Translations under genes and position numbers: made by a program
Source of the DNA: Candidatus Kaiserbacteria bacterium
GTDB lineage: Bacteria; Patescibacteriota; Minisyncoccia; Phycocordibacterales; Phycocordibacteraceae
Direction of reading: 5' to 3'
DNA length: 64,000 bases
Assembly (NCBI GenBank): GCA_023264445.1
Contig: JAHFMN010000001.1
Span: forward strand, 69,928 to 133,927
Part shown: piece after piece, positions 1,142 to 49,264 of the stretch
Position numbering within the stretch: the first letter of the stretch is position 1
How the letters are laid out: every line of letters starts with the position of its first letter
The notes under the pieces: generated by a model
Database searches by the model: none
The model's input: the letters and a program-made list of their open reading frames with translations, nothing else
Told to the model about the DNA's origin: nothing

Positions 1142-3226
1142 ATGGCTAATTTTAAATTACATCTCCCATTTCAGCCGGCGGGCGACCAGCCGAAAGCTAT
1201 TGCGGCTCTTGAGCAAGGGCTGAAAAAGGAGATGCGCCATCAGACCTTATTCGGTGTGACGGGGAGCGGGAAGACGTTTACGGTGGCAAATGTCATCGCG
1301 AAAAACGACAAGCCGACCCTCGTCCTTGCCCACAACAAGACGCTTGCGGCCCAGCTCGCGCAAGAATATCGGGAATTCTTCCCCGAGAATGCAGTGCATT
1401 ATTTCGTCTCCTATTATGATTACTACCAGCCGGAGGCGTATATCGCGCACTCGGACACCTATATAGAGAAGGAGGCGATGATAAACGCCGAGATAGACCG
1501 GCTTCGCCACGCGGCAACGCAGGCGCTCCTCACGCGCAAGGACGTCATTATCGTCGCATCAGTCTCGGCTATCTACGGTCTCGGCTCGCCAGAGGAATAT
1601 GAGAAGGTGCACGTGAAGATTGAGAAGGGTACCGCGGAGAATCGTGCCGCACTCATCCGGAAGCTCGTCGGCATCTACTTTGAGCGCACGACCGCCGACC
1701 TCAATCCCGGGCAGGTACGCGCGATTGGGAACTCGCTTGAATTCATGCCGGTGAATGAGCGCGTGATGTATAGAATCTCATTTGAGGGTGACGTCATCGC
1801 ACAGATTGATCAGCTCGATCCAGTCTCTCGCGCGAAGATTGCGGAGCCGAAGTCAGTCTTCGTCTTTCCGGCGAAGCACTTCATCACGAGCGAGGAGGAG
1901 CGCAATCGTGCGATAGAGGACATTAAGCTTGAGCTTGAGGAGCAGCTTGCGAAGTTTAAGAGGGAAGAGAAGCCGCTTGAGCACGAGCGCTTGAAGCGCC
2001 GTACTCTACACGACATTGCGCTTATTCGCGAGCTCGGCTACACAAGCGGGATTGAGAATTATTCACGGCATTTTGATGGCAGGAAGCCCGGAGAACCGCC
2101 CTTTACATTATTGAGTTATTTAAAACGCTGTGGAGAACTGGCAGACCCCGATGGAAAGCAGACTTCCAACGGGGCAGGTTTCCTCACCGTCATCGATGAG
2201 TCGCACGTCACCGTCCCGCAGATAGGCGGTATGTATGCGGGCGATAAGTCGCGCAAGGATGTGCTCGTGGAGTACGGCTTCCGCCTCCCATCGGCGCGCG
2301 ACAATCGCCCACTCCGCTTCGAGGAGTTTGAGGAGCGTATTGGCCAAGTCTTGTATACGAGCGCGACGCCGGGACCATATGAAAAAACACATTCCGAGCA
2401 GATAGTGGAACAGGTCATCCGCCCAACTGGGCTTATTGACCCGGAGCTCACGGTGCGCGGCGTAAGCGATACGGGAGATTACAAAGGCCAGATAGCGGAT
2501 TTTATCTCTGAAGCAGAAATAGTTATCAAGCGCGGCGGCCGCGCGCTTGCGACGACGCTCACCAAGCAGATGGCCGAAGATCTCGCATCATTTCTGCGCG
2601 AGAAGGGAATGAAGGCCGAGTACCTCCACTCTGACGTGAAGACGATTGACCGTATAGATATTCTCACCAAGTTTCGCCAAGGCGGCTTCGATATCCTCGT
2701 CGGCGTGAACCTACTCCGCGAAGGGCTTGATCTGCCCGAGGTAGAGCTCGTGGGAATCCTCGATGCTGATAAGGAAGGATTTCTGCGGAGCGAGACATCG
2801 CTTATCCAGACTATTGGGCGCGCGGCACGAAATGTCCTCGGCCGCGTCATCCTCTACGCCGACAACATGACGGGCTCGCTAGACAAAGCCATTAGTGAGA
2901 CGAATCGCCGCCGCGCGCTCCAGATGGCCTACAACAAGGAGCATGGCATTACGCCACTCACGATTAAAAAAGAAATTCACGACATCGCGGCGTCTATGCG
3001 TACCGAGCACCAGCGCACCATCGACGAGCTTCTCGTGTTGGACACGCTCGCTTACAAAGACGACCCTACCGCATTTATAAAGCGCAAGAGAGAAGAGATG
3101 GCCGAAGCCGTGGAGCAATTAGACTTTGAAACCGCCGCGCTCATCCGCGATGAGATTTATAAACTAGAAGGCACAGGCCCCAAGGCCCGCAAACCCCGCA
3201 CCCGCAAACCCCTTTCAGGGGGTTAA
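1142..3226 (+). CDS. uvrB: excinuclease ABC subunit B
   Basis: Walker A GVTGSGKT, the helicase motifs, and the C-terminal UVR motif FETAALIRDEIYKLEG. Confidence 0.95.
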   Translation: MANFKLHLPFQPAGDQPKAIAALEQGLKKEMRHQTLFGVTGSGKTFTVANVIAKNDKPTLVLAHNKTLAAQLAQEYREFFPENAVHYFVSYYDYYQPEAYIAHSDTYIEKEAMINAEIDRLRHAATQALLTRKDVIIVASVSAIYGLGSPEEYEKVHVKIEKGTAENRAALIRKLVGIYFERTTADLNPGQVRAIGNSLEFMPVNERVMYRISFEGDVIAQIDQLDPVSRAKIAEPKSVFVFPAKHFITSEEERNRAIEDIKLELEEQLAKFKREEKPLEHERLKRRTLHDIALIRELGYTSGIENYSRHFDGRKPGEPPFTLLSYLKRCGELADPDGKQTSNGAGFLTVIDESHVTVPQIGGMYAGDKSRKDVLVEYGFRLPSARDNRPLRFEEFEERIGQVLYTSATPGPYEKTHSEQIVEQVIRPTGLIDPELTVRGVSDTGDYKGQIADFISEAEIVIKRGGRALATTLTKQMAEDLASFLREKGMKAEYLHSDVKTIDRIDILTKFRQGGFDILVGVNLLREGLDLPEVELVGILDADKEGFLRSETSLIQTIGRAARNVLGRVILYADNMTGSLDKAISETNRRRALQMAYNKEHGITPLTIKKEIHDIAASMRTEHQRTIDELLVLDTLAYKDDPTAFIKRKREEMAEAVEQLDFETAALIRDEIYKLEGTGPKARKPRTRKPLSGG

Positions 3227-3292
3227 TCGGTAGCGTATTTTGCCCAAGGTGATAGAGTGCTTGCCAGACCAATAACCGCACAGGAGATGTGT

Positions 3293-3676
3293 ATGCCACG
3301 CAATAAACTTACGATCACCCCGCAGCAGCTCGAAGGAGTGCTGGCAATACTCGGGGTAAAGTTCGTTCCGGTAGAGGGCGAGCCGCTCAAGCCGGACTGC
3401 TATAACGATCATCTGGATTACCACTGTAAGAACAAGGTGACCCAGCATGCGGTCTGCGGCAACGTATCAATCAGGACGTGTTCGGACTCCTATTGCAGGT
3501 TGTTTGCTGCAATTGCCGCCCACTACATGACTCTCCCTATTAGTGCGCAACCACGGTTGCGCCAGGCGCTCGGGAGTATGCGTAAAAGGTCCATCGTGCG
3601 GATACGGGAACCGTACGTTCCAATGGGGCTCGGGAGCCTGCCGAGAAAGTCGGCAGCACGGTCGCGTGTGCGCTGA
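3293..3676 (+). CDS. hypothetical Cys/His-rich protein
   Basis: ORF 3257..3676. AGGAG lies 7 nt before the ATG at 3293. The protein has multiple C/H residues and no recognisable domain. Confidence 0.45.
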
Positions 3677-3696
3677 TTCCTGAAGGCCGGCGTTCC

Positions 3697-3735
3697 TTGA
3701 AAGCCCAGAGCGATCTGGGCTTTCTCTTTTCTTAT
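3697..3735 (+). terminator. rho-independent terminator
   Basis: GAAAGCCCAG-AGCGATC-CTGGGCTTTC hairpin followed by TCTTTTCTT. Confidence 0.6.
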
Positions 3736-3766
3736 AAACTCATGCCCATGAACTTCTTTCAGGATA

Positions 3767-3795
3767 TTGACAAATGTAATTAAGAATGCTATAAA
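3767..3795 (+). promoter_or_regulatory. sigma70-like promoter TTGACA-N17-TATAAA
   Basis: Consensus -35 box, 17-nt spacer and a near-consensus -10 box, followed by the RBS AAAAGGAGG and the TTG start at 3835. Confidence 0.45.
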
Positions 3796-3834
3796 GGAAA
3801 TGGAACACATTTCAAACGAAAAAAGGAGGTTGTC

Positions 3835-4122
3835 TTGTCCACCTACAGTATATCGAAATGGTTTGCCGTCGCTGTTGCAGTCATCGTAGTAATATTGTTG
3901 ATACTGTGCCTGACCGCAATTATGCAGCGCGACGCCTTCAAGAAACAACGGGAAAATCTCTCGACAGCGTATAAATCGCATCTTGCGAACGAATACATCC
4001 ACAACATCTGCAAGATCGAATTCATCGGAGACAGTCCTCGAGTCATCAGCCCTCAGGATGCAGCCTGTGTCGACGGTGTACGGATGCGAGTCGGGAATGA
4101 GGTCGATGCGATAGCAAAATAG
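3835..4122 (+). CDS. small membrane protein (TTG start)
   Basis: Strong RBS AAAAGGAGG 5 nt upstream. One N-terminal TM helix ([22 protein letters not shown]). Terminator downstream. Confidence 0.55.
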
Positions 4123-4153
4123 CAAATAAGTAATGTCGTTCGACCTGCGAATC

Positions 4154-4194
4154 GCGACCGTCTGGAGAAAACCCGGACGGTCGCTTTGTTTTAT
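4154..4194 (+). terminator. rho-independent terminator
   Basis: 9-bp stem GCGACCGTC/GACGGTCGC followed by TTTGTTTTAT. Confidence 0.55.
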
Positions 4195-4255
4195 ATGCGA
4201 ATGAGCCCGTGCTATACTCATACCGTACCTGCCCCGCCATGGGCAGGATTTGGGT

Positions 4256-6910
4256 ATGAAGAAGATACAAACCACCAAAGAAACCTCCAAAGAGCACCAC
4301 CATAAGCACGGGAGCGACTGGCTCCGTGTGAAGGGCGCACGCACCCATAATTTGAAAAATATTACGGTGGAGATGCCGCGTGGGGCGATGACGGTCATCA
4401 CCGGCCTCTCGGGAAGCGGGAAGTCCTCGCTCGCCTTTGACACCATCTTTGCCGAGGGTCAGCGGCGCTATGTGGAATCACTCTCCGCCTATGCGCGGCA
4501 ATTCTTGAATCAGATGGCGAAGCCGGACGTGGACGAGATTTCAGGCCTCTCCCCAGCCATTTCGATAGATCAGAAGAGTCGTTCTAATAACCCGCGCTCA
4601 ACGGTCGCGACCGTGACCGAGATTTATGACTATCTGCGCGTGCTCTACGCGCGCGCGGGCCAGCCATACTGCATCCACCACGACGTACCTATCGTGCGAC
4701 TCTCCAAAGAAGAGATGATTAAAATGGTCTTCGCGCGCGTAGAAGCGAAGCGGAAGGGCACGAGTCAGAGTGTGATGGGTGTCGCGGTGGATAAAACCGC
4801 CGTCACTATTTACGCGCCGGTCGTCGTCGGGAGAAAAGGCGAATACTATCAACTCCTCTATGATCTCCTCGGAAAGGGGTATGAACGAGTGGTGGTGGAT
4901 GGAAAGCTCCACTCGCTCCGCGAGAAGATAACGCTGGAGAGGAATAAGGTGCACAGTATCGACGCCGTCGTAGACTCTATTTACGTTTCTGAATTTGCGC
5001 GGTCCACTGCGGCCGCGCGCGAGCGCCTCTCCGAGGCGCTTGAGCTCGCGCTCAAGCAGGCCGACGGCCTAGTGAAGATTCAGCATGCCGATGGTACGAC
5101 CGAGACGCTTTCGTCAAAGTTTATCTGCCCTGAAGACGGCGCATCATTTCCAGAAGTAGAACCACGACTCTTCTCCTTCAATTCACCATACGGTGCATGC
5201 CCGGCCTGCCACGGCCTCGGCACCGAATCGCTCTTCTCTGAAGAAGTCTGTCCGGTCTGCGAGGGGAAGCGCCTGCGCCCCGAAGCACTGCGCGTCTACC
5301 TGAAGGGTAAAAAAGATAAGACGCTTGGGATAAATGTCGTGGACTTCACGAATATGTCGATTCGCGAAGCGAAGGAGTTCGTTGACTCTATCGAATTATC
5401 AGAGATGAAGTTCGATATTGCCGCGCCAATTCTAAAAGAAATAGACAGCCGCCTGACCTTCATGCTCAACGTCGGGCTGGATTATCTCACGCTGAACCGC
5501 TCGGCCGCGACACTCTCCGGCGGTGAGGCCCAGCGCATCCGCCTCGCCTCCCAGCTCGGGAGCGGGCTCACGGGCGCTCTCTACGTGCTAGACGAGCCGA
5601 CTATCGGGCTCCATCAGCGCGATAATGACCGTCTGATACAGACGCTCCTTGTACTCAAAGAGCTCGGGAACACCATCGTCGTCGTGGAACACGATGAGGA
5701 TACTATCTATTCTTCAGACTATATCGTCGACATCGGACCGGGCGCGGGTATTCACGGCGGCACGGTCGTTGCTTCTGGCTGGCTCGATGACCTGCTCACT
5801 GCAAAAGAGAACGAGAGCGGCTCGACGACACTTGGCTACCTGCGCGGCGAAAAAGAAATTGAGATACCCGAGGAGCGCCGCACAAGCGAGAAAGGGTGGA
5901 TCAAGATACGCGGCGCCACGCTCCACAATCTGGTAAATCAGAATATCGATGTGCCGCTCGGGAAGCTTACCTGCATCACGGGCGTCTCGGGGAGCGGGAA
6001 GTCCACTTTCCTCTACGATATCCTGCACCGCAATATTGAAAAGCGATTTACCCGCCGCGAGTCGAAGCTGGAGCATATAGCCTCACTCACGGGCACTGAA
6101 TACGTCGGCCGCGCCGTACTCATCGACCAGTCGCCCATTGGCCGCACACCGCGCTCCAACCCGGCGACGTACACAGGCGCCTTCACCCATATCCGCGACC
6201 TCTTCGCTGCCACTCCTGAAGCACGTGCGCGAGGATGGAAGCCCGGGCGCTTCTCCTTCAACGTTCCGGGTGGCCGTTGCGAAGCGTGTCAGGGCAATGG
6301 CTCGATCGCAGTCGAGATGCACTTCCTGCCGACCGTCTACGTCACCTGCGATATATGCATGGGCAAGCGGTTCATGAAGGAGACGCTCGAGATCACCTAT
6401 CGCGGGAAAAATATCTACGAAGTGCTCCAGATGACGATTGAAGAAGCCGAGAAATTCTTCGGTGATATTCCCGCCATCAACGACCGCTTGATGAGCTTGA
6501 ACTCAACCGGGCTCCAGTACCTCACTCTTGGTCAGAGTGCGACGACGCTCTCGGGCGGCGAGGCCCAGCGCGTGAAGATAGCGAGCGAGCTCTACCGCTC
6601 CATGACGATGAAGACCATCTACCTCCTCGATGAGCCGACGGTCGGCCTCCACTACGACGACGTGAAGAAGCTTATTGAAATCTTGCAGGAGCTCGTGCGT
6701 CGCGGCAATTCCGTCGTGGTCATCGAGCATAATCTTGATGTCATCAAGAGCTCCGATTACGTCATCGACTTCGGTCCTGAAGGCGGTGTGGGCGGAGGGA
6801 AGGTGATAGCGAAGGGCACGCCCGAAGAAGTCGCCGACACCAAGGACTCCTACACCGGCGAATACCTTGCGAAGGCATTACATCGTCATGCAAAGAAGCG
6901 AACTAAATAA
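4256..6910 (+). CDS. uvrA: excinuclease ABC subunit A
   Basis: Two ABC ATPase modules (GLSGSGKSS and GVSGSGKST) with LSGGE signatures. AGGA lies 8 nt before the ATG at 4256. The ORF-track start at 4250 is a TTG. Confidence 0.93.
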
Positions 6911-9187: not shown

Positions 9188-9260
9188 GGGCCCGTAGCTC
9201 ACTTGGTAGAGCGCCTCATTTGCAATGAGGAGGTAACCGGTTCGATCCCGGTCGGGTCCA
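9188..9260 (+). tRNA. tRNA-Ala (anticodon UGC)
   Basis: Cloverleaf GGGCCCG acceptor, D arm GCTC/GAGC, anticodon stem CCTCA/TGAGG with loop TTTGCAA, and T arm ACCGG-TTCGATC-CCGGT. It has G3:U70 and A73. CCA is not encoded. Confidence 0.85.
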
Positions 9261-9312
9261 CATACATCTCAGTTAAGTGCGATGCTCCACAGCGGGCTGA
9301 TATACTGCACGC

Positions 9313-10086
9313 ATGGAACTCATCGCAGGAGATAAGGAGCTCGAGGCGCTCAATGCACAATTAGATGACCCGAATCAGTTGCAGGCGTACAAGACTCCGC
9401 ACGACAACTATCATCCGCTCTTCCTTCCGCGTCTTCTCGGCCGCGTCTTGGTCGGCTGCGGGAACCTGGTGTATGGGCATGAGCCGTCGTATCTGAAATT
9501 CCGGTCGATAGAAATCGTCGCGCGCGTGCCATACCAATCATGGTCTTCTGCGGTCTATACGCTCCTCACCATGTTCTATGCCGATGAGCACAAGGCCATA
9601 CGATTCTCAAACGTTTCCCGCTATGCGCGCATCGCGCAAGATAACGAGACGATGCACGTCGTAGTCATCTCCCAGCTTGCGCGCACAGAGGGGAGAGCAG
9701 GGCTCATACGGCATACGCTTCTGCCGATGTTCTTTGCGTTCTTTTATTTCTGGGCATCCTACATCCTCTATCTGATGCGGCCTCGCTGGTCTTTCGAACT
9801 CAATTATCTCTTTGAACAGCACGCATTTGACCAATATAATCGCTTTCTTGAACAGTACCGCGAAGAACTGAAAAAGAAGCCGGCTGAAAGCGAATTCCTC
9901 ACCTGGTACGGGCGCAATCCGCGCTCTCAATTTGAGTTTTTCCAATCCGTCCGCAATGACGAACTGATCCACCGCAATCAGTCCGTCCGTGCGGTGAATA
10001 CAGAAGCGGATGCTTACCGTGTACATTCTTTGAAATTTGTTGCGATTGGCGCTGTTATCGTTCTGCTTGTTCTTATTCTGATATAA
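9313..10086 (+). CDS. alternative oxidase (AOX/PTOX)-like di-iron carboxylate protein with a C-terminal TM helix
   Basis: Segments NETMHV (like NERMHL), RNDELIHRN (like RADEAHHR), FEQHA (like LEEEA) and IEIVARVP match the four AOX iron-ligand helices. A C-terminal hydrophobic helix is present. Confidence 0.6.
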   Translation: MELIAGDKELEALNAQLDDPNQLQAYKTPHDNYHPLFLPRLLGRVLVGCGNLVYGHEPSYLKFRSIEIVARVPYQSWSSAVYTLLTMFYADEHKAIRFSNVSRYARIAQDNETMHVVVISQLARTEGRAGLIRHTLLPMFFAFFYFWASYILYLMRPRWSFELNYLFEQHAFDQYNRFLEQYREELKKKPAESEFLTWYGRNPRSQFEFFQSVRNDELIHRNQSVRAVNTEADAYRVHSLKFVAIGAVIVLLVLILI

Positions 10087-10145
10087 GAAGAAAGTCTCCG
10101 CACGTCTGGGAATCCGGTCCCGCATCTGGTATGGTACGAGCGTGC

Positions 10146-10219
10146 GCGCTCTTAGCTCAGTTGGTTAGAGCGTTCGCCTCACACGCGAAAGGTCATAGGT
10201 TCGAATCCTATAGAGCGCA
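10146..10219 (+). tRNA. tRNA-Val (anticodon CAC)
   Basis: Acceptor GCGCTCT/AGAGCGC, D arm GCTC-AGTTGGTTA-GAGC, anticodon loop CTCACAC, and T arm ATAGG-TTCGAAT-CCTAT. Confidence 0.85.
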
Positions 10220-10236
10220 CAAGAGGTGTTCTATGT

Positions 10237-10307
10237 CGGGCCGGAGTATGCCGGTAGTACATGCGCTTCGGGTGCGTAAGGACCGAGTTCAATTCTCGGC
10301 GGCCCGA
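10237..10307 (+). tRNA. tRNA-Pro (anticodon CGG)
   Basis: Acceptor CGGGCCG/CGGCCCG, anticodon stem TGCGC/GCGTA with loop TTCGGGT, and T arm CCGAG-TTCAATT-CTCGG. The D stem is short (3 bp). Confidence 0.75.
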
Positions 10308-10328
10308 CAAAGAACATCTCTCAAGAGG

Positions 10329-10402
10329 CGGGCTATCGTATACCGGTAGTACGCATGCATGGGGTGCATGTAGACCGGGTTCGATTCCCGGTAGCCCGAC
10401 CA
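10329..10402 (+). tRNA. tRNA-Pro (anticodon GGG), CCA encoded
   Basis: Acceptor CGGGCTA/TAGCCCG, anticodon stem CATGC/GCATG with loop ATGGGGT, and T arm CCGGG-TTCGATT-CCCGG, followed by ACCA. Confidence 0.75.
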
Positions 10403-10430
10403 AATATCGTCATGCTAGAATCGTGCGCAC

Positions 10431-10563
10431 GGGCCATTAGCTCAGCTGGTAAGCCGGTCAAAATCCGAAACCCAGTCCGGCTTCCCGACGGCACTTGCCT
10501 CGCATGAACAATATGAAGACATATGTTCATGCACTCGGCTCGCTTGCCGGTAGAGCGCGTTAT
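10431..10563 (+). pseudogene. tRNA-Ala 5' fragment with a ~100-nt structured insertion in the D-loop
   Basis: 21 nt GGGCCATTAGCTCAGCTGGTA are identical to the 5' end of the tRNA-Ala(CGC) 170 nt downstream. They are followed by a 101-nt insert with two hairpins, then GAGCGCGT matching tRNA positions 22-29. No 3' half or T arm follows. Confidence 0.6.
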
Positions 10564-10600
10564 TGTGATCCTATAGGTTTTCAGTATCCTGTAAGTAATC

Positions 10601-10673
10601 GGGCCATTAGCTCAGCTGGTAGAGCGCGTCATTCGCATTGACGAGGTCAGCGGTTCGACTCCGCTATGGTCCA
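10601..10673 (+). tRNA. tRNA-Ala (anticodon CGC)
   Basis: Acceptor GGGCCAT/ATGGTCC with G3:U70, D arm GCTC-AGCTGGTA-GAGC, anticodon loop TTCGCAT, and T arm AGCGG-TTCGACT-CCGCT. Confidence 0.85.
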
Positions 10674-10698
10674 CTGGGCTTCAAAGGGAAACAATCGC

Positions 10699-10769
10699 GG
10701 GCCTATGGTGAAGCGGTATCACGCGTCCATGGCATGGACGAAGTCGGGGTTCGACTCCCCGTAGGTCCA
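10699..10769 (+). tRNA. tRNA-Ala (anticodon GGC)
   Basis: Acceptor GGGCCTA/TAGGTCC with G3:U70, anticodon stem CGTCC/GGACG with loop ATGGCAT, and T arm CGGGG-TTCGACT-CCCCG. Confidence 0.8.
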
Positions 10770-10822
10770 CAAAAGTACGAAGTAGTTTTGTGGACCTATG
10801 CGCCATGCCTGCGCATGGCGCG
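10762..10822 (+). terminator. two consecutive perfect hairpins after the tRNA array
   Basis: GGTCCACAAAA-loop-TTTTGTGGACC is an 11-bp stem that reuses the tRNA 3' end. GCGCCATGC-CTGC-GCATGGCGC is a 9-bp stem. There is no T-run, so function as a terminator or processing site is uncertain. Confidence 0.35.
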
Positions 10823-14185: not shown

Positions 14186-15283
14186 ATGTTGAAAATTGGA
14201 ATCGTTGGACTGCCGAACGTGGGGAAATCCACGCTTTTTAATGCGCTCACTAAGGCATCGGTGCCGGCGGAGAACTATCCCTTTTGTACCATTGACCCCT
14301 CCGTGGGAGTCGTCGGTGTGCCAGACGCACGTCTTGGCGCGCTGGCACAATTCTCTGCAAGCGAGAAAGTCGTCCCGGCGGCAATAGAGTTCGTGGACAT
14401 CGCAGGGCTCGTGAAAGGTGCAGCGGAGGGCGAGGGTCTCGGGAATCAGTTTCTCGCGAATATCCGCGAGACGGACGCAATCCTCCACCTTGTTCGTTTC
14501 TTTGACGACCCAAATATCACGCACGTCGAGGAAGAGATTGAACCCTATAAAGACATAGAAATCATCAATCTTGAATTGGTACTCGCGGATGCCGAGCAGG
14601 TGCGCAAGCGGCGCGATAAAATCGCGGGCGATATCAAAGCGGGCCGTAAGGACGCGATTGCCGAAGACGCCGCACTGGCGAAGCTCACGCAGGCCTTCGC
14701 CGCAGGGAAGCTCGCGCTACATGCTGGACTCACTGATGACGAGAAAAAGATCCTTGCAGGATTAAACTTTCTCACCATGAAGCCGATGCTCTACGCGCTC
14801 AATCGGAAGAGTGGAGGACATAATCTCGATGAGCTTTCCGATGGTCGTGCCACGCGCGCATTTGAGCTCATTACCTCGCTTGGCTCACAATACATATTTC
14901 TTGATGCGGCAACGGAGCATGAGTTAAACGATGTCGCAGACGACGATCGTGAAGGATTTCGACGAGAACTTGGCGTCTCTGAAGATGGTCTCGCCGGGCT
15001 CATCCGCGGTGCATATGAGACCCTGGGTCTTATTTCTTTCTTTACCACTGGTACCGACGAGACGCGCGCGTGGACTATTACGCGGGGGAGTACGGCGCCC
15101 GAGGCGGGCGCCGCCATCCATAACGACTTCCTTACTAAATTTATCCGTGCTGAAATTATCGAATGGGACAAACTCCTCGCTGCTGGCTCGTACGCTGCCG
15201 CGCGTGAGAAGGGTCTCGTTCGCACCGAAGGGAAGGAGTATATCGTTCGCGACGGGGATGTGGTTGTCTTTCTTCACGGATAG
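14186..15283 (+). CDS. ychF: ribosome-binding ATPase YchF
   Basis: GIVGLPNVGKSTLFNALT G1 motif, the YchF body and the C-terminal TGS-like end. The RBS GGAGAGG is upstream. Confidence 0.92.
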   Translation: MLKIGIVGLPNVGKSTLFNALTKASVPAENYPFCTIDPSVGVVGVPDARLGALAQFSASEKVVPAAIEFVDIAGLVKGAAEGEGLGNQFLANIRETDAILHLVRFFDDPNITHVEEEIEPYKDIEIINLELVLADAEQVRKRRDKIAGDIKAGRKDAIAEDAALAKLTQAFAAGKLALHAGLTDDEKKILAGLNFLTMKPMLYALNRKSGGHNLDELSDGRATRAFELITSLGSQYIFLDAATEHELNDVADDDREGFRRELGVSEDGLAGLIRGAYETLGLISFFTTGTDETRAWTITRGSTAPEAGAAIHNDFLTKFIRAEIIEWDKLLAAGSYAAAREKGLVRTEGKEYIVRDGDVVVFLHG

Positions 15284-15358
15284 TTGACAAATCAAAAAAT
15301 ATAAGTACCATCAATTATAGAAAATTTCCTTCAATCTTTCCTCTAAGAGGAGAAGTCC

Positions 15359-15706
15359 ATGAACATCCGTCTGTTTCTATCCGTGTTGCTTCTCTTGCTA
15401 TTCGCAGGATGCGGCTCGGAAGCAAGGAGTAAAAGAGCATCATTCCTCGATGGCAAAGTCATTGTGGAGTATCAGGAGAATTTGGCTGAATATCGTCCGA
15501 AATATTACCTCTCCTTTCGGTTCTATGAGAAAGGAGATTACAACGTTTTGTTCGAGAGCCCTTCTCGTTACAAGACGCCGAAAAATTTTTGGAGGTCTAT
15601 CGATAGCGCCCCGCAGGAAATTGTGTTTGAGTCAAAAGAGCTCCCACACGAACTTCAAATAACTATCGTCAAAGATGGTGGCAGACGAGAAAGAAAAAAC
15701 TTCTGA
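15359..15706 (+). CDS. lipoprotein (signal peptide plus lipobox LFAGC)
   Basis: RBS GAGGAG. Hydrophobic signal peptide ending in AGC. Terminator downstream. Confidence 0.6.
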   Translation: MNIRLFLSVLLLLLFAGCGSEARSKRASFLDGKVIVEYQENLAEYRPKYYLSFRFYEKGDYNVLFESPSRYKTPKNFWRSIDSAPQEIVFESKELPHELQITIVKDGGRRERKNF

Positions 15707-15736
15707 GCCCCTGCCGATATCCCAACCTTGTTAATC

Positions 15737-15768
15737 CCCGTCTGCGCGGGGATTTCTTTTTATGGTGG
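15737..15768 (+). terminator. rho-independent terminator
   Basis: ATCCCCG-TCTGCG-CGGGGAT hairpin followed by TTCTTTTTAT. Confidence 0.55.
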
Positions 15769-15770
15769 CG

Positions 15771-15779
15771 TGGTATAAT
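15771..15779 (+). promoter_or_regulatory. extended -10 promoter TGGTATAAT (leaderless start at 15788)
   Basis: A TGnTATAAT element 8 nt before the ATG, with no SD sequence. Confidence 0.4.
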
Positions 15780-15787
15780 CCGTATCT

Positions 15788-16732
15788 ATGGATAAACCAA
15801 AAACAACGCCAAAAGATTTCTTCCTGTGGGCCGGGGCGATGGTTGCATTCTATTGGGCCATCATTGCCTACACGTTTCTTATTTTTGATTACATCAACTA
15901 CGCGCTTCCGAACGCACTTACGTATTATCCAAGCGATCCCTATCAGAGCGGCATCAGCTACGAAATGGCTTCAGTAATCGTTCTCCTACCGCTCTATATG
16001 TTCCTCATGCAGCTCATTCGTCGTGGCATTGTTCTCGATGCGTCCCGTAAAGAAATCTGGGTGCGCCGCTGGGCGCTCATTCTCACGCTCTTCGTCGCCG
16101 GCGTGGCGATAGCAGGAGACCTCATCACGCTTCTCACCACCTTCCTCAATGGGGAAGAACTCACGATGGCATTCATTCTCAAAGTGCTCACCATCTTCCT
16201 TATTGCAGCAGGAGTCTTCATGCACTTTACTGCGGACCTCAAGGGATACTGGGAGCTGTTTCCAAGCCGAAAACGTCTCCTTGGTGTCAGCGTCGGAATG
16301 CTCGCACTCGGCACGATTGTCGCAGGCTTCTTCATCGTAGGTACGCCGGCCGAAGCACGTCTTGCGCGCTTTGACACACAGAAGGTAAACGATTTGCAGA
16401 ACATACAGTCGCAAGTCGTGTACTACTGGCAGGCGAAGCAGCAACTGCCGATGACGATCACTGACCTCAATAACTCTCTCTCCTACGGCCCAGTACCGGT
16501 GGATCCCCAGACAGGGAAGTCGTACGTCTACCAAACGGTCGGGGCACTCTCCTTCAAGCTGTGTGCAGTGTTTAACGCAGAAAGCCGCACAGGTGTCATG
16601 CCCATCGAAAACCGCCCGATTCCGGTAGGGGAGAAGGGTCTCCCGGATAATTGGCAACATGACGCCGGTCAGGTGTGTTTCGACCGGACTATCGATCCGA
16701 GCTTCTATCCACCGCTCACGAAGCAGCTGTAA
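15788..16732 (+). CDS. hypothetical membrane protein (N-terminal multi-TM region plus C-terminal soluble domain)
   Basis: Six predicted TM helices followed by a domain of about 110 aa. No confident family assignment. Confidence 0.6.
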   Translation: MDKPKTTPKDFFLWAGAMVAFYWAIIAYTFLIFDYINYALPNALTYYPSDPYQSGISYEMASVIVLLPLYMFLMQLIRRGIVLDASRKEIWVRRWALILTLFVAGVAIAGDLITLLTTFLNGEELTMAFILKVLTIFLIAAGVFMHFTADLKGYWELFPSRKRLLGVSVGMLALGTIVAGFFIVGTPAEARLARFDTQKVNDLQNIQSQVVYYWQAKQQLPMTITDLNNSLSYGPVPVDPQTGKSYVYQTVGALSFKLCAVFNAESRTGVMPIENRPIPVGEKGLPDNWQHDAGQVCFDRTIDPSFYPPLTKQL

Positions 16733-16755
16733 CAGCCGGTTACGGTATCGGCCAC

Positions 16756-19590
16756 ATGGCGTACGACCACACAGAGATCGAGAAAGCAGCCCGAGAGAAA
16801 TGGGCCAGTCTTAATCTCTACACGGTCGACTTCTCTGATAATGTAAAAGACCCGTATTATCTCCTTGTCGAGTTCCCGTACCCCTCGGGTGATCTCCATA
16901 TCGGGCATTGGTACGCGTTTGCGGTGACCGACATCTATGCGCGCATGCTGCGCGCGCGGGGAAAGAATGTTCTGTTCCCAATCGGATTCGATGCGTTCGG
17001 ACTGCCCGCGGAAAATGCAGCTATCAAGAATGGCCTTGATCCGAAGGAGTGGACGTATAAGAACATGGAACGCATGCGGCAGCAGCTGACAACGATGGGC
17101 CCGTCATTTGATTGGTCAAAAGAAGTTGTGACCTGCGAACCGGGGTACTACCAGTGGACGCAGTGGCTCTTCGTGAAGCTTTTTGAGCAAGGACTTGCCG
17201 AGCATCGTGAAGCAGCAGTCAAATGGTGTCCGAAGGATCAGACGGTGCTTGCAAACGAACAGGTCATCGACGGCTGCTGTGAGCGCTGTAGTACGCCAGT
17301 GGAAGAGAAAAGACTGACGCAGTGGTTCCTCAAGATTACCGACTATGCCGAGCGACTCCTCACCGGTCTCGATGCGCTCCCATGGCGCGAAGAGATAAAG
17401 GAAGCACAGCGTGCATGGATAGGGAAAAGCGAAGGCGCGTATCTGGAATTTCCAATCGTTGGTCGCGATGAGAAGATTAAGGTCTTCACAACGCGTCCCG
17501 ACACGGTGTTCGGTGCCACGTATGCAGTGCTTGCGCCGGAGCACGCGCTTGTCTCGGCGCTGTTGCCTGCTATTTCAAATAAAAAAGAAGTTGAAGCATA
17601 TGTGCATGCCACTGCACAGAAGACTGAACGAGAACGTAGTGAAAACAAAGAGAAGACCGGTGTGAAGCTCGAAGGAGTGAACGCGGTACATCCCGCAACA
17701 AATGAGGAAATTCCAATTTTCGTCGCCGATTATGTCATAGGTTCGTATGGCACCGGCGCGCTGATGGCAGTCCCAGCACACGATGAGCGAGATAGTGAGT
17801 TTGCACAAAAAATGGGCATACCCGTTCGTCAAGTTATTGCACCGCGGTATCACCAGACGACTGAGCCAGGAATCTATCGGCCGGAGGAACCGACCACAGA
17901 AAAAGACGGCATCATCGTCCTCATCAAACACTGGAAGGAAGAGAAATACCTCGGTCTCAAGTGGAAAGAGGTCGCATGGGGAACCCTACTCACCGGCGGT
18001 GTTGACGAGGGACTCACGCCAGAAGAAACGGTGTTCAAAGAAATCAAGGAGGAAACAGGATATCTGCACCTACAGATCAAACAGAAATTCGGAGTCGTCG
18101 ATGGACTCTTCTATCACGTACCGAAGCAGAAGAATCAGCATGTACACGGGCATATGTTTTATGTCGAGCTGAAAGATGGCGAGCAAGAAGCCATCAGCAA
18201 GGACGAATCTTCAAAACACGACCTAGTCTGGCTCACGGTAGAAGAATTGGAAACATTCCTTACGCCCGATACGCACAAACACACCTTGAATCTATTCCGT
18301 AACGGGCCGCAACCGTACACCGGAAATGGCTCTCTTGTCAGTTCGGGCGAATTTTCCGGCCGCGAGAGTGAAGATGCAAAATGGGAGATTGTGAAGCATG
18401 TCGGCGGAGAAAAGACCACTCAATATCGCATTCGGGATTGGCTCGTTTCCCGCCAGCGATACTGGGGATGTCCTATACCGATTGTCTATGATCCTGAAGG
18501 GAAGCCGCGTCCGATCCCGAAGGAGCATCTGCCGTGGCTTCTGCCAACCGATGTAGACTTCACGCCCACCGGCAAGGCGCCACTTGCGTCTTCAAAGGAA
18601 TTGCAGGAGCGCGTGACGAAGCTATTCGGCGAAGGATGGACGCCAGAATACGACACGCTCGATACCTTCGTTGATTCCTCCTGGTACTTCCTCCGCTATC
18701 TTGATCCGAAAGATCTGCATGATTTCTCGGATGCAGCTCTTATGAAGAAATGGATGCCGGTCAACCGATACTCGGGCGGGAGCGAACACACGACGATGCA
18801 CCTTCTCTATGCTCGGTTCTTTACGAAAGCGCTCTATGACCTCGCACTCGTGCCCGTGGATGAGCCGTTTACCGAACGTTTCAATCGCGGACTCATCATG
18901 GGTCCCGATGGACAAAAAATGAGCAAGTCAAAAGGGAACGTCGTGAATCCGGATGAATTTGTGCAGAAATATGGCGCAGATGCCGTACGGCTTTTCCTCG
19001 CTTTCATCGGCCCGTATAACGAACCGGGAAGTTATCCATGGAGCTTGGAAGGCGTTGCTTCCATGCGTAAATTCCTTGAGCGCGTTATGCGCCTCACGGA
19101 ACGGGCTCAAGACGTATCCGAAGTGGGTAATGAACTGCAGCAGGCGATTGCACGGGCAAGCATAAAGGTCTCCAAAGACGGTGATCGATTTAAATTCAAT
19201 ACCGGCGTTGCAGCACTCATGATTCTCGTCAACGAACTTGAAGCTTCCGTAGCTGTGCCAAAAACTGCATTGAGTTCTTTCCTCGTCATGCTCGCTCCTT
19301 TTGCGCCTCATATCGCTGAATACCTATGGGAGAAACTCGGAGGAGAAGGGAGTATCCACCAGCAGGCGTGGCCAGTGTTTGACGCGAGCACTCTTGTCGA
19401 GAGTTCAGCGGAAGTTGTGGTTCAGGTCAACGGCAAGCGGCGTGGCTCGCTCACCCTCGCCACCGATATTTCCGAGGAGGAAGCCGTTCGTGCTGCACGT
19501 GCGCTTCCCGCTGCCGCCGCGGCGCTTGCCGGAAAGGATCCTTCGCGCACCGTATATGTCCCGGGGAAAATCATCAATCTGGTCGGATAA
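16756..19590 (+). CDS. leuS: leucyl-tRNA synthetase carrying an inserted Nudix-hydrolase-like domain
   Basis: HIGH (HIGHWYAF), the CP1 editing domain (TTRPDT...MAVPAHDERD), RDWLVSRQRYWG and KMSKS. In addition there is a ~150-aa insert between the AHDERD motif and SSGEFSG that contains a Nudix box GGVDEGLTPEETVFKEIKEETGY. Confidence 0.92.
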   Translation: MAYDHTEIEKAAREKWASLNLYTVDFSDNVKDPYYLLVEFPYPSGDLHIGHWYAFAVTDIYARMLRARGKNVLFPIGFDAFGLPAENAAIKNGLDPKEWTYKNMERMRQQLTTMGPSFDWSKEVVTCEPGYYQWTQWLFVKLFEQGLAEHREAAVKWCPKDQTVLANEQVIDGCCERCSTPVEEKRLTQWFLKITDYAERLLTGLDALPWREEIKEAQRAWIGKSEGAYLEFPIVGRDEKIKVFTTRPDTVFGATYAVLAPEHALVSALLPAISNKKEVEAYVHATAQKTERERSENKEKTGVKLEGVNAVHPATNEEIPIFVADYVIGSYGTGALMAVPAHDERDSEFAQKMGIPVRQVIAPRYHQTTEPGIYRPEEPTTEKDGIIVLIKHWKEEKYLGLKWKEVAWGTLLTGGVDEGLTPEETVFKEIKEETGYLHLQIKQKFGVVDGLFYHVPKQKNQHVHGHMFYVELKDGEQEAISKDESSKHDLVWLTVEELETFLTPDTHKHTLNLFRNGPQPYTGNGSLVSSGEFSGRESEDAKWEIVKHVGGEKTTQYRIRDWLVSRQRYWGCPIPIVYDPEGKPRPIPKEHLPWLLPTDVDFTPTGKAPLASSKELQERVTKLFGEGWTPEYDTLDTFVDSSWYFLRYLDPKDLHDFSDAALMKKWMPVNRYSGGSEHTTMHLLYARFFTKALYDLALVPVDEPFTERFNRGLIMGPDGQKMSKSKGNVVNPDEFVQKYGADAVRLFLAFIGPYNEPGSYPWSLEGVASMRKFLERVMRLTERAQDVSEVGNELQQAIARASIKVSKDGDRFKFNTGVAALMILVNELEASVAVPKTALSSFLVMLAPFAPHIAEYLWEKLGGEGSIHQQAWPVFDASTLVESSAEVVVQVNGKRRGSLTLATDISEEEAVRAARALPAAAAALAGKDPSRTVYVPGKIINLVG

Positions 19591-19600
19591 CTGCGTGCCA

Positions 19601-19629
19601 TTGACTCTTTATGAGGTGTTTGCTATAAA
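19601..19629 (+). promoter_or_regulatory. sigma70-like promoter TTGACT-N17-TATAAA driving a leaderless transcript
   Basis: Near-consensus boxes. The ATG at 19639 lies about 9 nt after the -10 box, with no SD. Confidence 0.45.
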
Positions 19630-19638
19630 TTAGACCAC

Positions 19639-20718
19639 ATGAAAAAGACACGTTCGAGCACTGCGCATGCAAAGGGGCGGACTGTCCCCAGTACCTCGTT
19701 TTCTTTTGATGCTGCGACGCTTGCGAAGCGTCTTCTTGCTGCAGCTCCAGAACGTTCTCGAGAGGTCCTTACTCGCCGCTTCGGTCTCGGTGCTTCTCCC
19801 GAGCGCGAGACTCTCGAGGCAATCGGGGATCGCTCGAGCATCACGCGCGAGCGCGTACGGCAGATCGAAGCAGCTGGCCTCGATGCGATACGCTCAAGCA
19901 AAGTTTTCAAAGAAGCCGCTACTGCTTTTGATGAAATTGCAAAATACATCCATTCGCTTGGTGCCATCGTGCCTGAAGAGACTCTCCTTTCCGCGCTCGG
20001 TAAGGATGAAAAGAACCGCAATCGTTTCCGCTTCTTCCTCATGGTCAATGCAGCATTTTTCCGCGAACGTGAGACGAACGATTTCCTCGCGCGCTGGCAC
20101 GTGGATCATACGACGGCAAAGCATATCCACTCGGCACTGACGCGGCTCTATTCTTCGCTTTCTGATACCGACGTTGTTACCGAAGGAGAACTTCTTGACC
20201 GTTTTCTTGATGAACTCAAAGAGGTAAATGATGCGTACAAGAATGAAGAGGTGCTGAAGCGCTGGCTCTCGCTCTCCAAGCACATCGGCAGTAATCCGCT
20301 CACGCAATGGGGCCGTGTCACGGCACCTGCTATCCGCATCAAGGGCGTTCGCGATTACGCGTATCTTGCCGTAAAGCGTCATGGCACCCCGATGCATTTC
20401 TCTGAAGTGGCGAAGACCATCGGCGCGCTGTTCTCCAAGAAGGCGCATATTGCGACGACGCACAACGAGCTCATCAAGGATCCACGCTTCGTGCTGGTCG
20501 GTCGCGGACTCTATGCACTTACCGAATGGGGCTATACGCCGGGCGTCGTACGCGACGTCATCCGCGAGACGCTCGAGGAGAAGGGACCGATGAAAAAGGA
20601 GGAAATCATCAAACATGTGAAGAAGGCACGTTTCGTGAAGGACAACACCATTCTGGTCAATTTGAATGATTCTCGTTACTTCAAACGCATGAAGGACGGT
20701 CGTTACGCGGCAGTCTAA
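19639..20718 (+). CDS. regulatory protein with an N-terminal sigma-70 region-4-like HTH and a C-terminal HARE-HTH domain
   Basis: TLEAIGDRSSITRERVRQIEAAGLDAIR resembles region 4.2. The C-terminal HFSEVAKTIGALF...FVLVGRGLYALTEWGY resembles HARE-HTH, as in the RpoE delta subunit N-terminus. Confidence 0.6.
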   Translation: MKKTRSSTAHAKGRTVPSTSFSFDAATLAKRLLAAAPERSREVLTRRFGLGASPERETLEAIGDRSSITRERVRQIEAAGLDAIRSSKVFKEAATAFDEIAKYIHSLGAIVPEETLLSALGKDEKNRNRFRFFLMVNAAFFRERETNDFLARWHVDHTTAKHIHSALTRLYSSLSDTDVVTEGELLDRFLDELKEVNDAYKNEEVLKRWLSLSKHIGSNPLTQWGRVTAPAIRIKGVRDYAYLAVKRHGTPMHFSEVAKTIGALFSKKAHIATTHNELIKDPRFVLVGRGLYALTEWGYTPGVVRDVIRETLEEKGPMKKEEIIKHVKKARFVKDNTILVNLNDSRYFKRMKDGRYAAV

Positions 20719-20736
20719 CAACGCGCAACAAAAACA

Positions 20737-20775
20737 GCGGCGTCTCATGACGCCGCTGTTTTTGTTGGTATCCCC
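20737..20775 (+). terminator. rho-independent terminator
   Basis: CAGCGGCGTC-TCAT-GACGCCGCTG hairpin followed by TTTTTGTTGG. Confidence 0.6.
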
Positions 20776-20815
20776 GTAGTAGAGCTTCGCTTCACTACAG
20801 GGTATACTAGAAACC

Positions 20816-22180
20816 ATGCTGCCGTTCTTCGAATGGGTGACAGATCTACGAGATACGATTACCGGTACATTTGGCCTCCGCTTCCATCCGTGGCCGATTT
20901 TCATACTCGGCCTTGCACTCCTCGTCGTGTCATACCTCTTCATGCCGGATGCGGTCTCTCTCGCTTTTTCAATCGCGCTTTTCCTCGCACCTCTGTGGCT
21001 ACCGTTCCTGCTCGTGAACGCAGCACTCATGCTCTGGCTTATCTTGAAACAAGGAGAGTTCATCTCATCCCAGAAATATCTTTTGCTTGAAATAAAGCCG
21101 CCACGAAACTTGGTGAAGACTCCGCTCGCAATGGAAGCTTTCCTATCTACATTGCACATAGGCCCCGGTGAGAGTACGTGGTATGTACGGTGGATGAAAG
21201 GTGCTCTGCGCCCGTGGTGGTCGCTTGAGATAGCGTCGTTCGAAGGTCAGGTCCATTTCTTCATATGGACGCGAGCCAACTTCCGCCGCATGATTGAGAC
21301 GCAGATATATGCGCAGTATCCGGGCGCGCAGATAGTCGAGGCGCCCGACTATACACGACTTATCAGCGGGACAATAGAAGATTTTGGTATCTGGGGCTGT
21401 GATTTTAAACACACTAACGCAACGCCACTTCCCATCAAAACATATATTGAATACGGGCTTGACCAGGTGCAGAAGGAGCCGGAACAGGTCGATCCGCTTG
21501 CAAACCTCATTGAATTTATGGGTTCAGTGGGCAAGGGTGAATACCTCTGGCTCCAGATGATATTCCGCCAACATAAGGGAGAGCGATACGGGAAACTCAA
21601 CGAAAAAGGTAAAGCGTATACGTGGACCGATGAGGCAAAAGAGATGATCGATAAGATACGCAAGGAAACTCGCGAACCGTATGTGGATCCTATGACCGGT
21701 AAAGAGATGCCGGGATTTCCGAGTCCGACGAAAGGGCAGGCAGAGAAAATTGCAGCTATCGAACGCAATGTTTCGAAACAGGGTTTTGATGTCGGCATCC
21801 GCTGCATCTATCTTGCGAAGAAGGATTCATTCAATCCTATCGTCATCACCCAGATGAACGGGCTTTTCAATCCCTTCAACTCACTAGGATGGAACGGCAT
21901 TGGAGCGGCCGAATGGCTCCGGCATTTCGATGACTATCCATGGGAAATCGGTGTGGAAAAAAAGAAGGACCTGTATCGTCGCAAACTCGTTGAAGCGTTT
22001 CGCCGTCGTCAGTTCTTCCATGAACCGTTTTCTTTTGGTGTTGCGCCGAAAGATATCATGGTCATGAGCACGGAAGAGCTTGCGACCGTCTACCATATAC
22101 CTTCGCGTGCCGTCGAGACGCCAGGCCTCACGCGCATCCAGTCAGCGACGAGCGAAGCGCCTCCGAACCTGCCGACCTAA
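20816..22180 (+). CDS. hypothetical membrane protein (2 N-terminal TM helices plus a ~380-aa soluble domain)
   Basis: Long ORF with no Walker motif or recognisable family. The TATACT -10 box is immediately upstream (leaderless). Confidence 0.6.
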   Translation: MLPFFEWVTDLRDTITGTFGLRFHPWPIFILGLALLVVSYLFMPDAVSLAFSIALFLAPLWLPFLLVNAALMLWLILKQGEFISSQKYLLLEIKPPRNLVKTPLAMEAFLSTLHIGPGESTWYVRWMKGALRPWWSLEIASFEGQVHFFIWTRANFRRMIETQIYAQYPGAQIVEAPDYTRLISGTIEDFGIWGCDFKHTNATPLPIKTYIEYGLDQVQKEPEQVDPLANLIEFMGSVGKGEYLWLQMIFRQHKGERYGKLNEKGKAYTWTDEAKEMIDKIRKETREPYVDPMTGKEMPGFPSPTKGQAEKIAAIERNVSKQGFDVGIRCIYLAKKDSFNPIVITQMNGLFNPFNSLGWNGIGAAEWLRHFDDYPWEIGVEKKKDLYRRKLVEAFRRRQFFHEPFSFGVAPKDIMVMSTEELATVYHIPSRAVETPGLTRIQSATSEAPPNLPT

Positions 22181-49179: not shown

Positions 49180-49264
49180 TGCGTCGGTGGCGGAGTGGTC
49201 AATCGCAACAGGCTGTAAACCTGTCGGACATCGTCCTTCGTTGGTTCGAATCCAACCCGGCGCA
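49180..49264 (+). tRNA. tRNA-Tyr (anticodon GUA), long variable arm
   Basis: Acceptor GCGTCGG/CCGGCGC, anticodon stem ACAGG/CCTGT with loop CTGTAAA, a long variable arm, and T arm GTTGG-TTCGAAT-CCAAC. Coordinates may be off by 1 nt. Confidence 0.8.

Follow-up and report, generated by a model that had tools for sequence, protein, structure and literature searches.

A leucyl-tRNA synthetase (LeuRS) with a Nudix hydrolase domain built into its CP1 editing domain is encoded in a 64,000-nucleotide stretch of a Candidatus Kaiserbacteria genome (assembly GCA_023264445.1, contig JAHFMN010000001.1, positions 69,928 to 133,927; hereafter the window). That the insert is a real Nudix fold is as good as certain. 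Judged from its sequence, it is also very probably an active Mg2+-dependent pyrophosphohydrolase that works independently of the synthetic and editing sites of its host, and it belongs to a distinct Nudix subfamily of the candidate phyla radiation (CPR; Patescibacteria). A preliminary description of the window, made from the letters and their translations, had proposed a full Nudix fold in LeuRS and had suggested a Pfam profile search, a full-length structure prediction and a survey of homologs as checks. Coordinates are collected in Table 1, and residue numbers refer to the 944-aa LeuRS protein.

The Nudix insert and its host enzyme

Relative to LeuRS proteins of about 790 to 830 aa that lack it, the insert stands in for a loop of 5 to 15 residues between 'LPIxxV' and 'PYTGxGxLxNSGxF' and adds about 150 residues. 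The span given for it in the preliminary description, 17857 to 18330, was essentially right, if displaced by 18 nt from the boundaries adopted here. Searched alone, that first segment matches the Pfam NUDIX profile (PF00293) with an E value of 3e-13 and 50.4 bits, compared to a gathering score of 21.1, and the full protein matches it with an E value of 1.2e-11 and 45.1 bits. An AlphaFold2 (AF2) model of the insert, built with 42 homologous inserts, has a predicted local distance difference test (pLDDT) value of 95.1 and a predicted template modeling (pTM) score of 0.90, with strands and helices in the order expected of Nudix proteins and the alpha/beta/alpha sandwich of that fold. The full-length model has a pLDDT of 86.6 and a pTM of 0.77, with pLDDT values over the insert remaining at 89 to 95. 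The profile search and both models thus bear out the central claim of the preliminary description. Its placement of the insert between the end of CP1 and the segment that follows has to be corrected, however, since deletion of residues 362 to 519 in silico restores a continuous match to the editing-domain profile PF13603 (positions 1 to 183 of 185), which puts the insert within CP1. Because the strands that flank it are paired in the AF2 models, these models place the insert at the tip of a CP1 beta-hairpin.

The survey of homologs showed the insert to be no singular oddity, as it is present in 99 of the 120 best LeuRS homologs (922 to 1134 aa) found in a collection of 5.8 billion proteins. 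All 99 stem from CPR/Patescibacteria metagenomes. A PF00293 match was already precomputed for all but one of them (P0033), and their source names read Paceibacterota, Parcubacteria, Kaiserbacteria, Minisyncoccia or simply 'bacterium'. When 1.84 billion cluster representatives were searched exhaustively with HMMER and a profile of the insert, 177 proteins matched at E<1e-30 and a total of 505 at E<1e-10. It should be noted that a word-index homolog search with the insert alone gave a false negative, as short and fast-evolving queries can do there; hundreds of relatives were recovered by the full-length and profile searches. A single-sequence scan of species-representative genomes, which yielded 10 loci and so gives a sample of the taxonomic picture, added Azambacteria, Taylorbacteria, Nomurabacteria and Parcubacteria RAAC4_OD1_1, along with a few metagenome-assembled genomes (MAGs) labeled Saccharibacteria or DPANN archaea. 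Three MAGs labeled Nanoarchaeota, Woesearchaeota and Pacearchaeota (L005, L008 and L010) carry a bacterial-type LeuRS with the Nudix insert, in L008 as an open reading frame (ORF) of 974 aa at 2918-5842; mis-binning or transfer could account for these DPANN-labeled contigs.

Translation of the Nudix box gives the pattern G x5 L x7 K E I x E E x G Y and confirms the two departures from GX5EX7REUXEEXGU (E to L and R to K) that had been described before. E429, E432 and E433 are the predicted catalytic, metal-binding glutamates, and the earlier statement that these are intact extends to the 99 homologous inserts, where they are conserved in 99, 98 and 99 cases, respectively. Other positions are similarly constrained: G414 is found in 99, G435 in 92, W492 in 99, W403 and K457 in 98 each, and the aromatic pair beyond the box is Y or F in 99 (position 452) and 92 (position 453). 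E484, outside the box, is likewise without exception and, by analogy with other Nudix enzymes, may serve as a fourth metal ligand or as the general base. The box positions that differ in the window copy, 420 and 428, covary as pairs among these homologs (E-R in 45, Q-A in 17 and M/L-K in 19), so that replacement of the canonical E and R is best understood as a swapped structural salt bridge and not as decay. Since the glutamates are nearly invariant although identity of the inserts to the window copy ranges from 76% down to 26% (mean 42%), strong purifying selection on Nudix catalysis would seem to be at work.

The host enzyme is matched by the NCBIfam model of bacterial LeuRS (TIGR00396, leuS_bact) with 902.4 bits, well above its cut-off of 548.4, in two stretches that are separated by the insert. 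In an alignment of 96 homologs the editing-site residues T245, T246, R247, T250, H342, D343, R345 and D346 are invariant. Given that the HIGH, KMSKS, TTRPDT and HDxRD motifs are all invariant and that the score exceeds the curated cut-off, the LeuRS is in other respects canonical and presumably fully functional. The ATG at 16756 is most likely the real start of leuS, because its 944-aa product is 100% identical to database protein P0001 and because it lies 23 nt past the stop codon of the upstream gene. Residues 327 to 341 (VIGSYGTGALMAVPA, 17734-17778) are the sole segment with a pLDDT below 50 in the full-length AF2 model. They form the GTG loop, a highly conserved part of the editing site immediately before HDERD. 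Flexibility of a loop that binds substrate, or some influence of the insert on the prediction, may explain their low values.

Insertion sites, free-standing relatives and gene context

Sites of insertion were mapped with a LeuRS profile of 794 positions, built from 21 insert-less relatives, together with the insert profile. The majority of Nudix inserts occupy the site seen in the window, near profile position 365, and others occur at four further sites (Table 1). All of the mapped sites are loop or hairpin tips in the model of the window protein. The number of copies varies as well. At the window's site P0134 carries two copies in tandem, and P0121 (a partial protein of 941 aa) and P0122 (1140 aa) have three copies each, of which one occupies that site and the other two form a tandem ahead of CP1; the catalytic glutamates are intact in all of them. 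Whatever the LeuRS site, each copy keeps these glutamates and the aromatic pair 16 and 17 residues past the box. Copies cluster by site, with 59 to 67% identity to same-site copies in other proteins, a pattern that speaks for several insertions long ago and not for noise in the alignment. In the best 150 representatives of the profile search the multidomain hosts are almost all LeuRS; the exceptions are the tandem-Nudix proteins P0128 and P0241 together with a few Nudix proteins whose N-terminal extensions are unassigned in Pfam or unscanned.

Modules other than Nudix also reside in the loops of these synthetases. Alpha/beta hydrolases of the Ser_hydrolase family are found in many LeuRS proteins of the clade, often together with a Nudix insert and once as a tandem pair (P0186). 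HAD_2 phosphatases are found as well, and a 1330-aa LeuRS contains a complete Ham1/RdgB ITPase domain in its anticodon-binding region. A recurrent module of about 135 to 140 aa (KLELNFYDDVVWNSLLDGTKTIETRALNP...) has no match in Pfam and resembles ASCH/PUA domains by eye only. Database names overlook these architectures: LeuRS-Nudix proteins are listed as 'class I tRNA ligase family protein', and the 1330-aa LeuRS is named 'RdgB/HAM1 family non-canonical purine NTP pyrophosphatase' by NCBI.

Close relatives manage without the insert. Three insert-less leuS genes, with 78 to 83% core identity to the window LeuRS, lie in exactly matching gene order (YchF, DUF5671, leuS, HARE-HTH/sigma70_r4, DUF8128, YceG), and no Nudix gene is present at the locus in any of the three. 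It follows that LeuRS can function without the insert and that the insert is labile in evolution. Insert-less proteins occur in 14 separate places of a neighbor-joining tree of LeuRS cores, which, being drawn from simple distances in a nearly star-like set, speaks to lability and not to the number of events. Core and insert divergence were uncorrelated in two sets of proteins (Spearman -0.08 and +0.09), a comparison that is no proof of domain swapping, as the first set was biased by hit selection and the second was near saturation.

Free-standing members of the subfamily were also recovered. About 25 representatives of 126 to 250 aa (most of 154 to 207 aa) comprise the domain without flanking LeuRS and match the insert profile at E values of 1e-35 to 1e-53; a few are probably gene fragments. 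Since these relatives share the N-terminal 'xQTTEPGxxRxxEPxxE' motif, this motif is part of the domain and not a linker. The catalytic core is kept in nearly all of them, and in a comparison of about 55 sequences four show Q or K in place of the first of the two adjacent glutamates. The aromatic pair past the box is retained in the free-standing relatives as well. They are real genes, and the genomic context of nine was examined. In three of the nine, leuS follows directly on the same strand, in one case encoding a LeuRS that has an insert of its own (Table 1), and just 36 to 46% of the residues of these three are identical to one another. A fourth, P0154, is 2.4 kb upstream of an insert-less leuS. 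There, the same strand carries TatD, P0154, two small ORFs, a YfbR-like HD 5'-nucleotidase, a 217-aa ORF, a different, MutT-like Nudix protein of 145 aa and leuS in that order (L014:2902-8549), which makes up a small grouping of genes for nucleotide hydrolases. Since one subfamily has entered no fewer than five LeuRS loops, with one to three copies per protein, and since its free members also sit directly upstream of leuS in divergent genomes, the evolutionary tie between the two seems specific and not accidental. 

Elsewhere, a free member (P0208) is located 4 nt downstream of fpg/mutM in two assemblies (L023:3016-4513 and L024:110-1607), which hints at a role in handling oxidized guanine, similar to that of the GO system, for at least that member. 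A free Ser_hydrolase gene (L001:276-896) lies about 5 kb and five genes upstream of the free Nudix gene P0165.

In the window itself the order of genes around leuS (14186-22180) is conserved in relatives whether or not their LeuRS carries the insert; the Pfam names of these neighbors in Table 1 were carried over from the syntenic loci and were not computed on the window ORFs. Six tRNA genes are clustered at 9188-10770 (Ala-TGC, Val-CAC, Pro-CGG, Pro-GGG, Ala-CGC and Ala-GGC), and a tRNA-Tyr gene stands apart at 49181-49265. The 64-kb window has no tRNA-Leu gene, and a family-profile search found no second Nudix gene in it.

Table 1. Features of the window, modules at LeuRS profile positions in related proteins, and free-standing members next to leuS.
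Feature	Location	Strand	Details
Inserted Nudix domain	17839..18312	+	residues 362-519; by alignment to insert-less close relatives
Nudix box GGVDEGLTPEETVFKEIKEETGY	17995..18063	+	G414-Y436; by translation
Aromatic pair F452-Y453	18112..18117	+	+16/+17 past Nudix box
Distal glutamate E484, outside box	18205..18207	+	invariant in 99/99 homologs and in the 42-insert alignment
leuS	16756..19590	+	bacterial-type LeuRS with insert, 944 aa; longer GTG ORF from 16675
HIGH motif, class I synthetic site	16897..16908	+	by translation; H48, G50, H51 invariant in 96 aligned homologs
KMSKS motif, synthetic site	18916..18930	+	by translation; K721, M722, S723, K724 invariant in 96 homologs
CP1 editing domain, portion before insert	17410..17838	+	residues 219-361; PF13603 E 3.5e-58, profile positions 1-158
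TTRPDT editing motif	17488-17505	+	in CP1 portion before insert
HDERD editing motif	17779-17793	+	in CP1 portion before insert
CP1 editing domain, portion after insert	18313..18399	+	begins PYTGNGSLVSSGEFSG; PF13603 on insert-deleted sequence
YchF GTPase	14186-15283		upstream neighbor; name from syntenic loci
Small ORF	15359-15706		between YchF and DUF5671-like genes
DUF5671-like membrane protein	15788-16732		directly upstream of leuS; name from syntenic loci
HARE-HTH/sigma70_r4 protein, 359 aa	19639-20718		downstream of leuS; name from syntenic loci
DUF8128-like protein, 454 aa	20816-22180		downstream neighbor; name from syntenic loci
Nudix	LeuRS ~365		window's site, majority of cases
Nudix, one or two tandem copies	LeuRS ~207		P0121, P0122, P0123, P0127, P0181
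Nudix	LeuRS ~238		P0047, P0125, P0126, P0253
Nudix	LeuRS ~430		P0193
Nudix	LeuRS ~470		P0141, P0189
Ser_hydrolase (PF06821) alpha/beta hydrolase, 160-210 aa	LeuRS ~238, ~430		P0003, P0020, P0081, P0132, P0158, P0186, P0198, P0212, P0221, P0264
HAD_2 phosphatase, ~205 aa	LeuRS ~480 (~354 in P0249)		among P0156, P0167, P0243, P0249
Ham1/RdgB ITPase (PF01725)	LeuRS ~630, anticodon-binding region		P0157/P0271 (1330 aa), residues 962-1155; E 1e-54
Recurrent module, ~135-140 aa	LeuRS ~430		P0157 620-758, P0161 595-731; also P0163, P0217, P0223, P0233, P0270
Free Nudix and leuS, L006	3998-4489 and 4536-7424	same strand	46 nt apart; LeuRS also with insert
Free Nudix and leuS, P0178 locus		same strand	directly upstream of leuS; 2 nt apart
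Free Nudix P0222 and leuS, L021	3451-3936 and 3939-5303	same strand	3 nt apart; LeuRS insert-less
Free Nudix P0222 and leuS, L022	492-977 and 980-3217	same strand	3 nt apart; LeuRS insert-less

Possible roles of the domain

The reading given preference here, which is judged somewhat likelier to hold as a whole than to fail, is that the insert is an autonomous Mg2+-dependent Nudix pyrophosphohydrolase that is tethered to the synthetase while standing outside its aminoacylation and tRNA-editing machinery. That it would stand outside this machinery follows from the unchanged synthetic and editing sites and from the close relatives that do without it. Its substrates would be nucleotide polyphosphates, with dinucleoside polyphosphates of the diadenosine tetraphosphate (Ap4A) type as first candidates, and the synthetase would thereby clear by-products of its own adenylate reaction. 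Aminoacyl-tRNA synthetases (aaRSs) are a classical source of dinucleoside polyphosphates (ApnN), and Nudix enzymes include the asymmetric Ap4A hydrolases (PMC7705103). The parts of this reading differ in strength: a functional tie of the domain to LeuRS is probable, and the identification of the substrates as dinucleoside polyphosphates, or as comparable by-products of adenylate chemistry, is tentative and has a lesser chance of being correct, although the Ap4A type proposed in the preliminary description is still the best single guess.

Clues to the substrate come from structural neighbors and from comparison with characterized subfamilies. The nearest solved structure is 2azw, an uncharacterized Nudix protein of Enterococcus faecalis. 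Structural neighbors beyond it are the diadenosine polyphosphatase Rv2985/MutT1, Nudix effectors of fungi and oomycetes, the Ap6A hydrolase Ndx1 of Thermus thermophilus, DDP1, DIPP1, the Ap4A hydrolases of Aquifex and Chlamydia, and RppH. Weak sequence matches in the PDB include the decapping effector AvrM14 (2e-8) and the lupin Ap4A hydrolase (4e-7). Among family models, RppH/NudH-type models gave the most consistent weak matches, in 41 of 42 inserts, with MutT, NudB, NudE and MutT1 models matching fewer. The scores remain far below curated cut-offs, however, both for RppH (NF001934-NF001938; at best 28.9 bits compared to 259, the others 17 to 23 compared to 116 to 241) and for MutT (TIGR00586, 15.8 compared to 97.9; NF008044, 18.2 compared to 148). 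With these scores, and with 2azw as the nearest structure, the likeness to MutT emphasized in the preliminary description does not stand out. A tyrosine some 16 to 18 residues past the Nudix box reportedly marks asymmetric diadenosine polyphosphate (ApnA) hydrolases, and the position of F452-Y453 is taken here to be a marker of the ApnA-hydrolase or RppH type that is suggestive but not specific. On the basis of the structural neighbors and this conserved aromatic pair, the insert leans, as far as its sequence can tell, to the polyphosphate, ApnA or 5'-end-RNA branch of the Nudix proteins. All 42 inserts are acidic (net charge -4 to -13, pI 4.7 to 5.9).

Several observations weigh against clearance of the synthetase's own by-products. 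Prediction of Nudix substrates from sequence is notoriously unreliable, and LeuRS is not known to be among the strongest producers of Ap4A. Every match to a characterized subfamily falls far short of its curated cut-off, and the closest structure has no assigned function. Insertion sites in relatives include anticodon-binding and CP-core loops, and such variable sites make it less likely that the domain is coupled to either active site in a fixed geometry. Of the nine free-standing members whose context was examined, five lie away from leuS. Finally, the Ham1, HAD and Ser_hydrolase sibling inserts and the fpg-adjacent member point to generic house-cleaning that is not specific to LeuRS. This last point leads to the explanation that the domain is a passenger, a general sanitizer of the nucleotide pool (for example a MutT-like enzyme acting on oxidized or non-canonical (deoxy)nucleoside triphosphates) for which LeuRS is a mere scaffold and expression vehicle, accommodated in the permissive loops of a large, essential and constitutively expressed protein in streamlined CPR genomes. 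It would fit the scatter of insertion sites over loop and hairpin tips, the interspersed presence and absence of the insert on the core tree, the uncorrelated divergence of core and insert, the proximity of P0208 to fpg/mutM and the MutT-like Nudix and YfbR-like 5'-nucleotidase genes that precede leuS in L014. In its pure form, however, it predicts many different hosts, and the multidomain hosts of the subfamily are almost exclusively LeuRS while free members recur directly upstream of leuS; this explanation is accordingly regarded as rather unlikely, though it is the main alternative.

Other explanations have less to recommend them than tethered hydrolysis of nucleotide polyphosphates. The weak preference for RppH models, the AvrM14 match at the top of the PDB list and Pfam Nudt16-like matches in the tandem free paralogs P0241 and P0128 would suit an RppH-like 5'-pyrophosphohydrolase or decapping enzyme, acting on 5'-triphosphorylated RNA or on NAD- or Np4A-capped RNA, that LeuRS delivers to tRNA(Leu) or other RNAs. 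This is improbable given that the inserts are uniformly acidic, unlike a typical RNA-binding module, that their scores are so far under the RppH cut-offs, and that their variable geometry is at odds with a defined position on a bound tRNA; mature tRNA, moreover, already has a 5' monophosphate. Very little can be said for additional proofreading, be it pre-transfer editing by hydrolysis of misactivated aminoacyl-adenylates, as the preliminary description had entertained, or some other part in LeuRS fidelity. The insert does lie inside the editing domain in the window protein, but conservation of the canonical editing site is complete, members of this Nudix subfamily occur outside CP1 and as free genes, and syntenic close relatives have no insert. 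The chemistry is also a poor match, as Nudix enzymes cleave nucleoside diphosphates linked to another moiety and aminoacyl-AMP is an acyl-phosphate monoester anhydride, a substrate of the HIT family.

A non-catalytic module, which as a sensor that binds nucleotides or as a structural spacer would regulate LeuRS or mediate protein-protein contacts, might be suspected from the L and K that replace the glutamate of Gx5E and the arginine of REUxEE in the window copy and from the much faster evolution of the insert than of the core (mean pairwise distance 0.63 versus 0.25). It is hardly compatible with the essential invariance of E429, E432, E433 and E484 in about 100 homologs, in every copy and at every site, or with the covariation at the E/R positions, which are the canonical E-R in 45 of 99, and is thus considered highly improbable. 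An artifact or selfish element, be it a chimera created in assembly, an intein or some mobile element inserted in frame, is effectively refuted: the patchy presence among close relatives and the slightly lower GC content and higher AT skew over the insert could have suggested one, but the same in-frame architecture recurs in about 100 independent metagenomic proteins (NCBI, JGI, ENA and Logan), and the AF2 models fold the domain with the CP1 hairpin strands paired. An intein or mobile element was looked for and rejected, as the protein has no Hint or endonuclease Pfam domain and no direct or inverted repeats were found in 17600-18600.

Significance and relation to known systems

The preliminary description knew of no LeuRS with a Nudix insertion. 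This holds in so far as a search through the full text of 8 million papers and preprints brought up no description of the architecture, with the proviso that coverage was incomplete and that an earlier mention elsewhere is possible; in sequence data, the insert is widespread in CPR bacteria and its Pfam hits are precomputed and public. The sequences have been public for years and the general idea has precedents, NadM-Nudix and IleRS-GNAT among them. What is unusual is the recurrent insertion of one hydrolase subfamily into one synthetase at multiple sites and in multiple copies, which would probably be unexpected to an aaRS specialist, and accessory domains of aaRSs usually signal new biology. 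A broader and doubtful proposal is that LeuRS in a large branch of the CPR bacteria has become a dedicated platform for coupled damage-control hydrolases (one to three Nudix copies, Ham1/ITPase, HAD and alpha/beta hydrolase), with the Nudix domain destroying Ap4A-type or mis-adenylylated by-products at their source. Were it true, by-product editing would be a third form of aaRS quality control beside pre-transfer and post-transfer editing. Should the domain degrade Ap4A-like products, it would provide natural evidence that such dinucleotides are damage metabolites that cells want removed, as well as a ready-made system for tests of synthetase-hydrolase coupling. The Ham1, HAD and alpha/beta-hydrolase inserts point to an unrecognized packaging of housekeeping hydrolases in genome-reduced CPR bacteria, and as a practical consequence LeuRS-hydrolase proteins are mis-named in public databases.

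Comparison with known systems places the insert near several of them and identical to none. With RppH/NudH/IalA it has in common the Nudix fold, the REUxEE glutamates along with the distal Glu, and an aromatic residue about 17 positions past the box, but it is acidic and not basic, has an N-terminal motif of its own, is embedded in LeuRS and scores 19 to 28 bits where the curated cut-offs are 116 to 259, which places it outside that family. The structural-genomics protein 2AZW is a free-standing Firmicute protein with 16% identity to the insert, from which no function can be transferred. Mycobacterial MutT1 (Rv2985), an 8-oxo-(d)GTP phosphatase and diadenosine polyphosphatase whose NCBIfam model is weakly matched by 15 of 42 inserts, is fused end to end to a histidine-phosphatase-like domain and not to a synthetase. 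That an enzyme of adenylyl transfer can be paired with a Nudix domain has a precedent in NadM-Nudix, in which a nicotinamide mononucleotide adenylyltransferase of the HIGH superfamily is joined to a Nudix ADP-ribose pyrophosphatase that degrades a related dinucleotide or pyrophosphate (PMC7824862). That protein is an end-to-end fusion, however, with a Nudix domain of another subfamily (weakly matched by 1 to 4 of 42 inserts per model) and a nucleotidyltransferase in place of an aaRS. On the side of the host, other aaRSs also have embedded or appended enzyme domains, an example being the isoleucyl-tRNA synthetase (IleRS) with an N-acetyltransferase (GNAT) domain described by NCBIfam NF040702, likewise a class Ia synthetase with an extra catalytic domain. 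Its existence indicates that synthetases of this class tolerate added catalytic domains; the domain there is GNAT and not Nudix, and neither a Nudix insertion nor the multi-site, multi-copy pattern of the LeuRS inserts is known from such enzymes.

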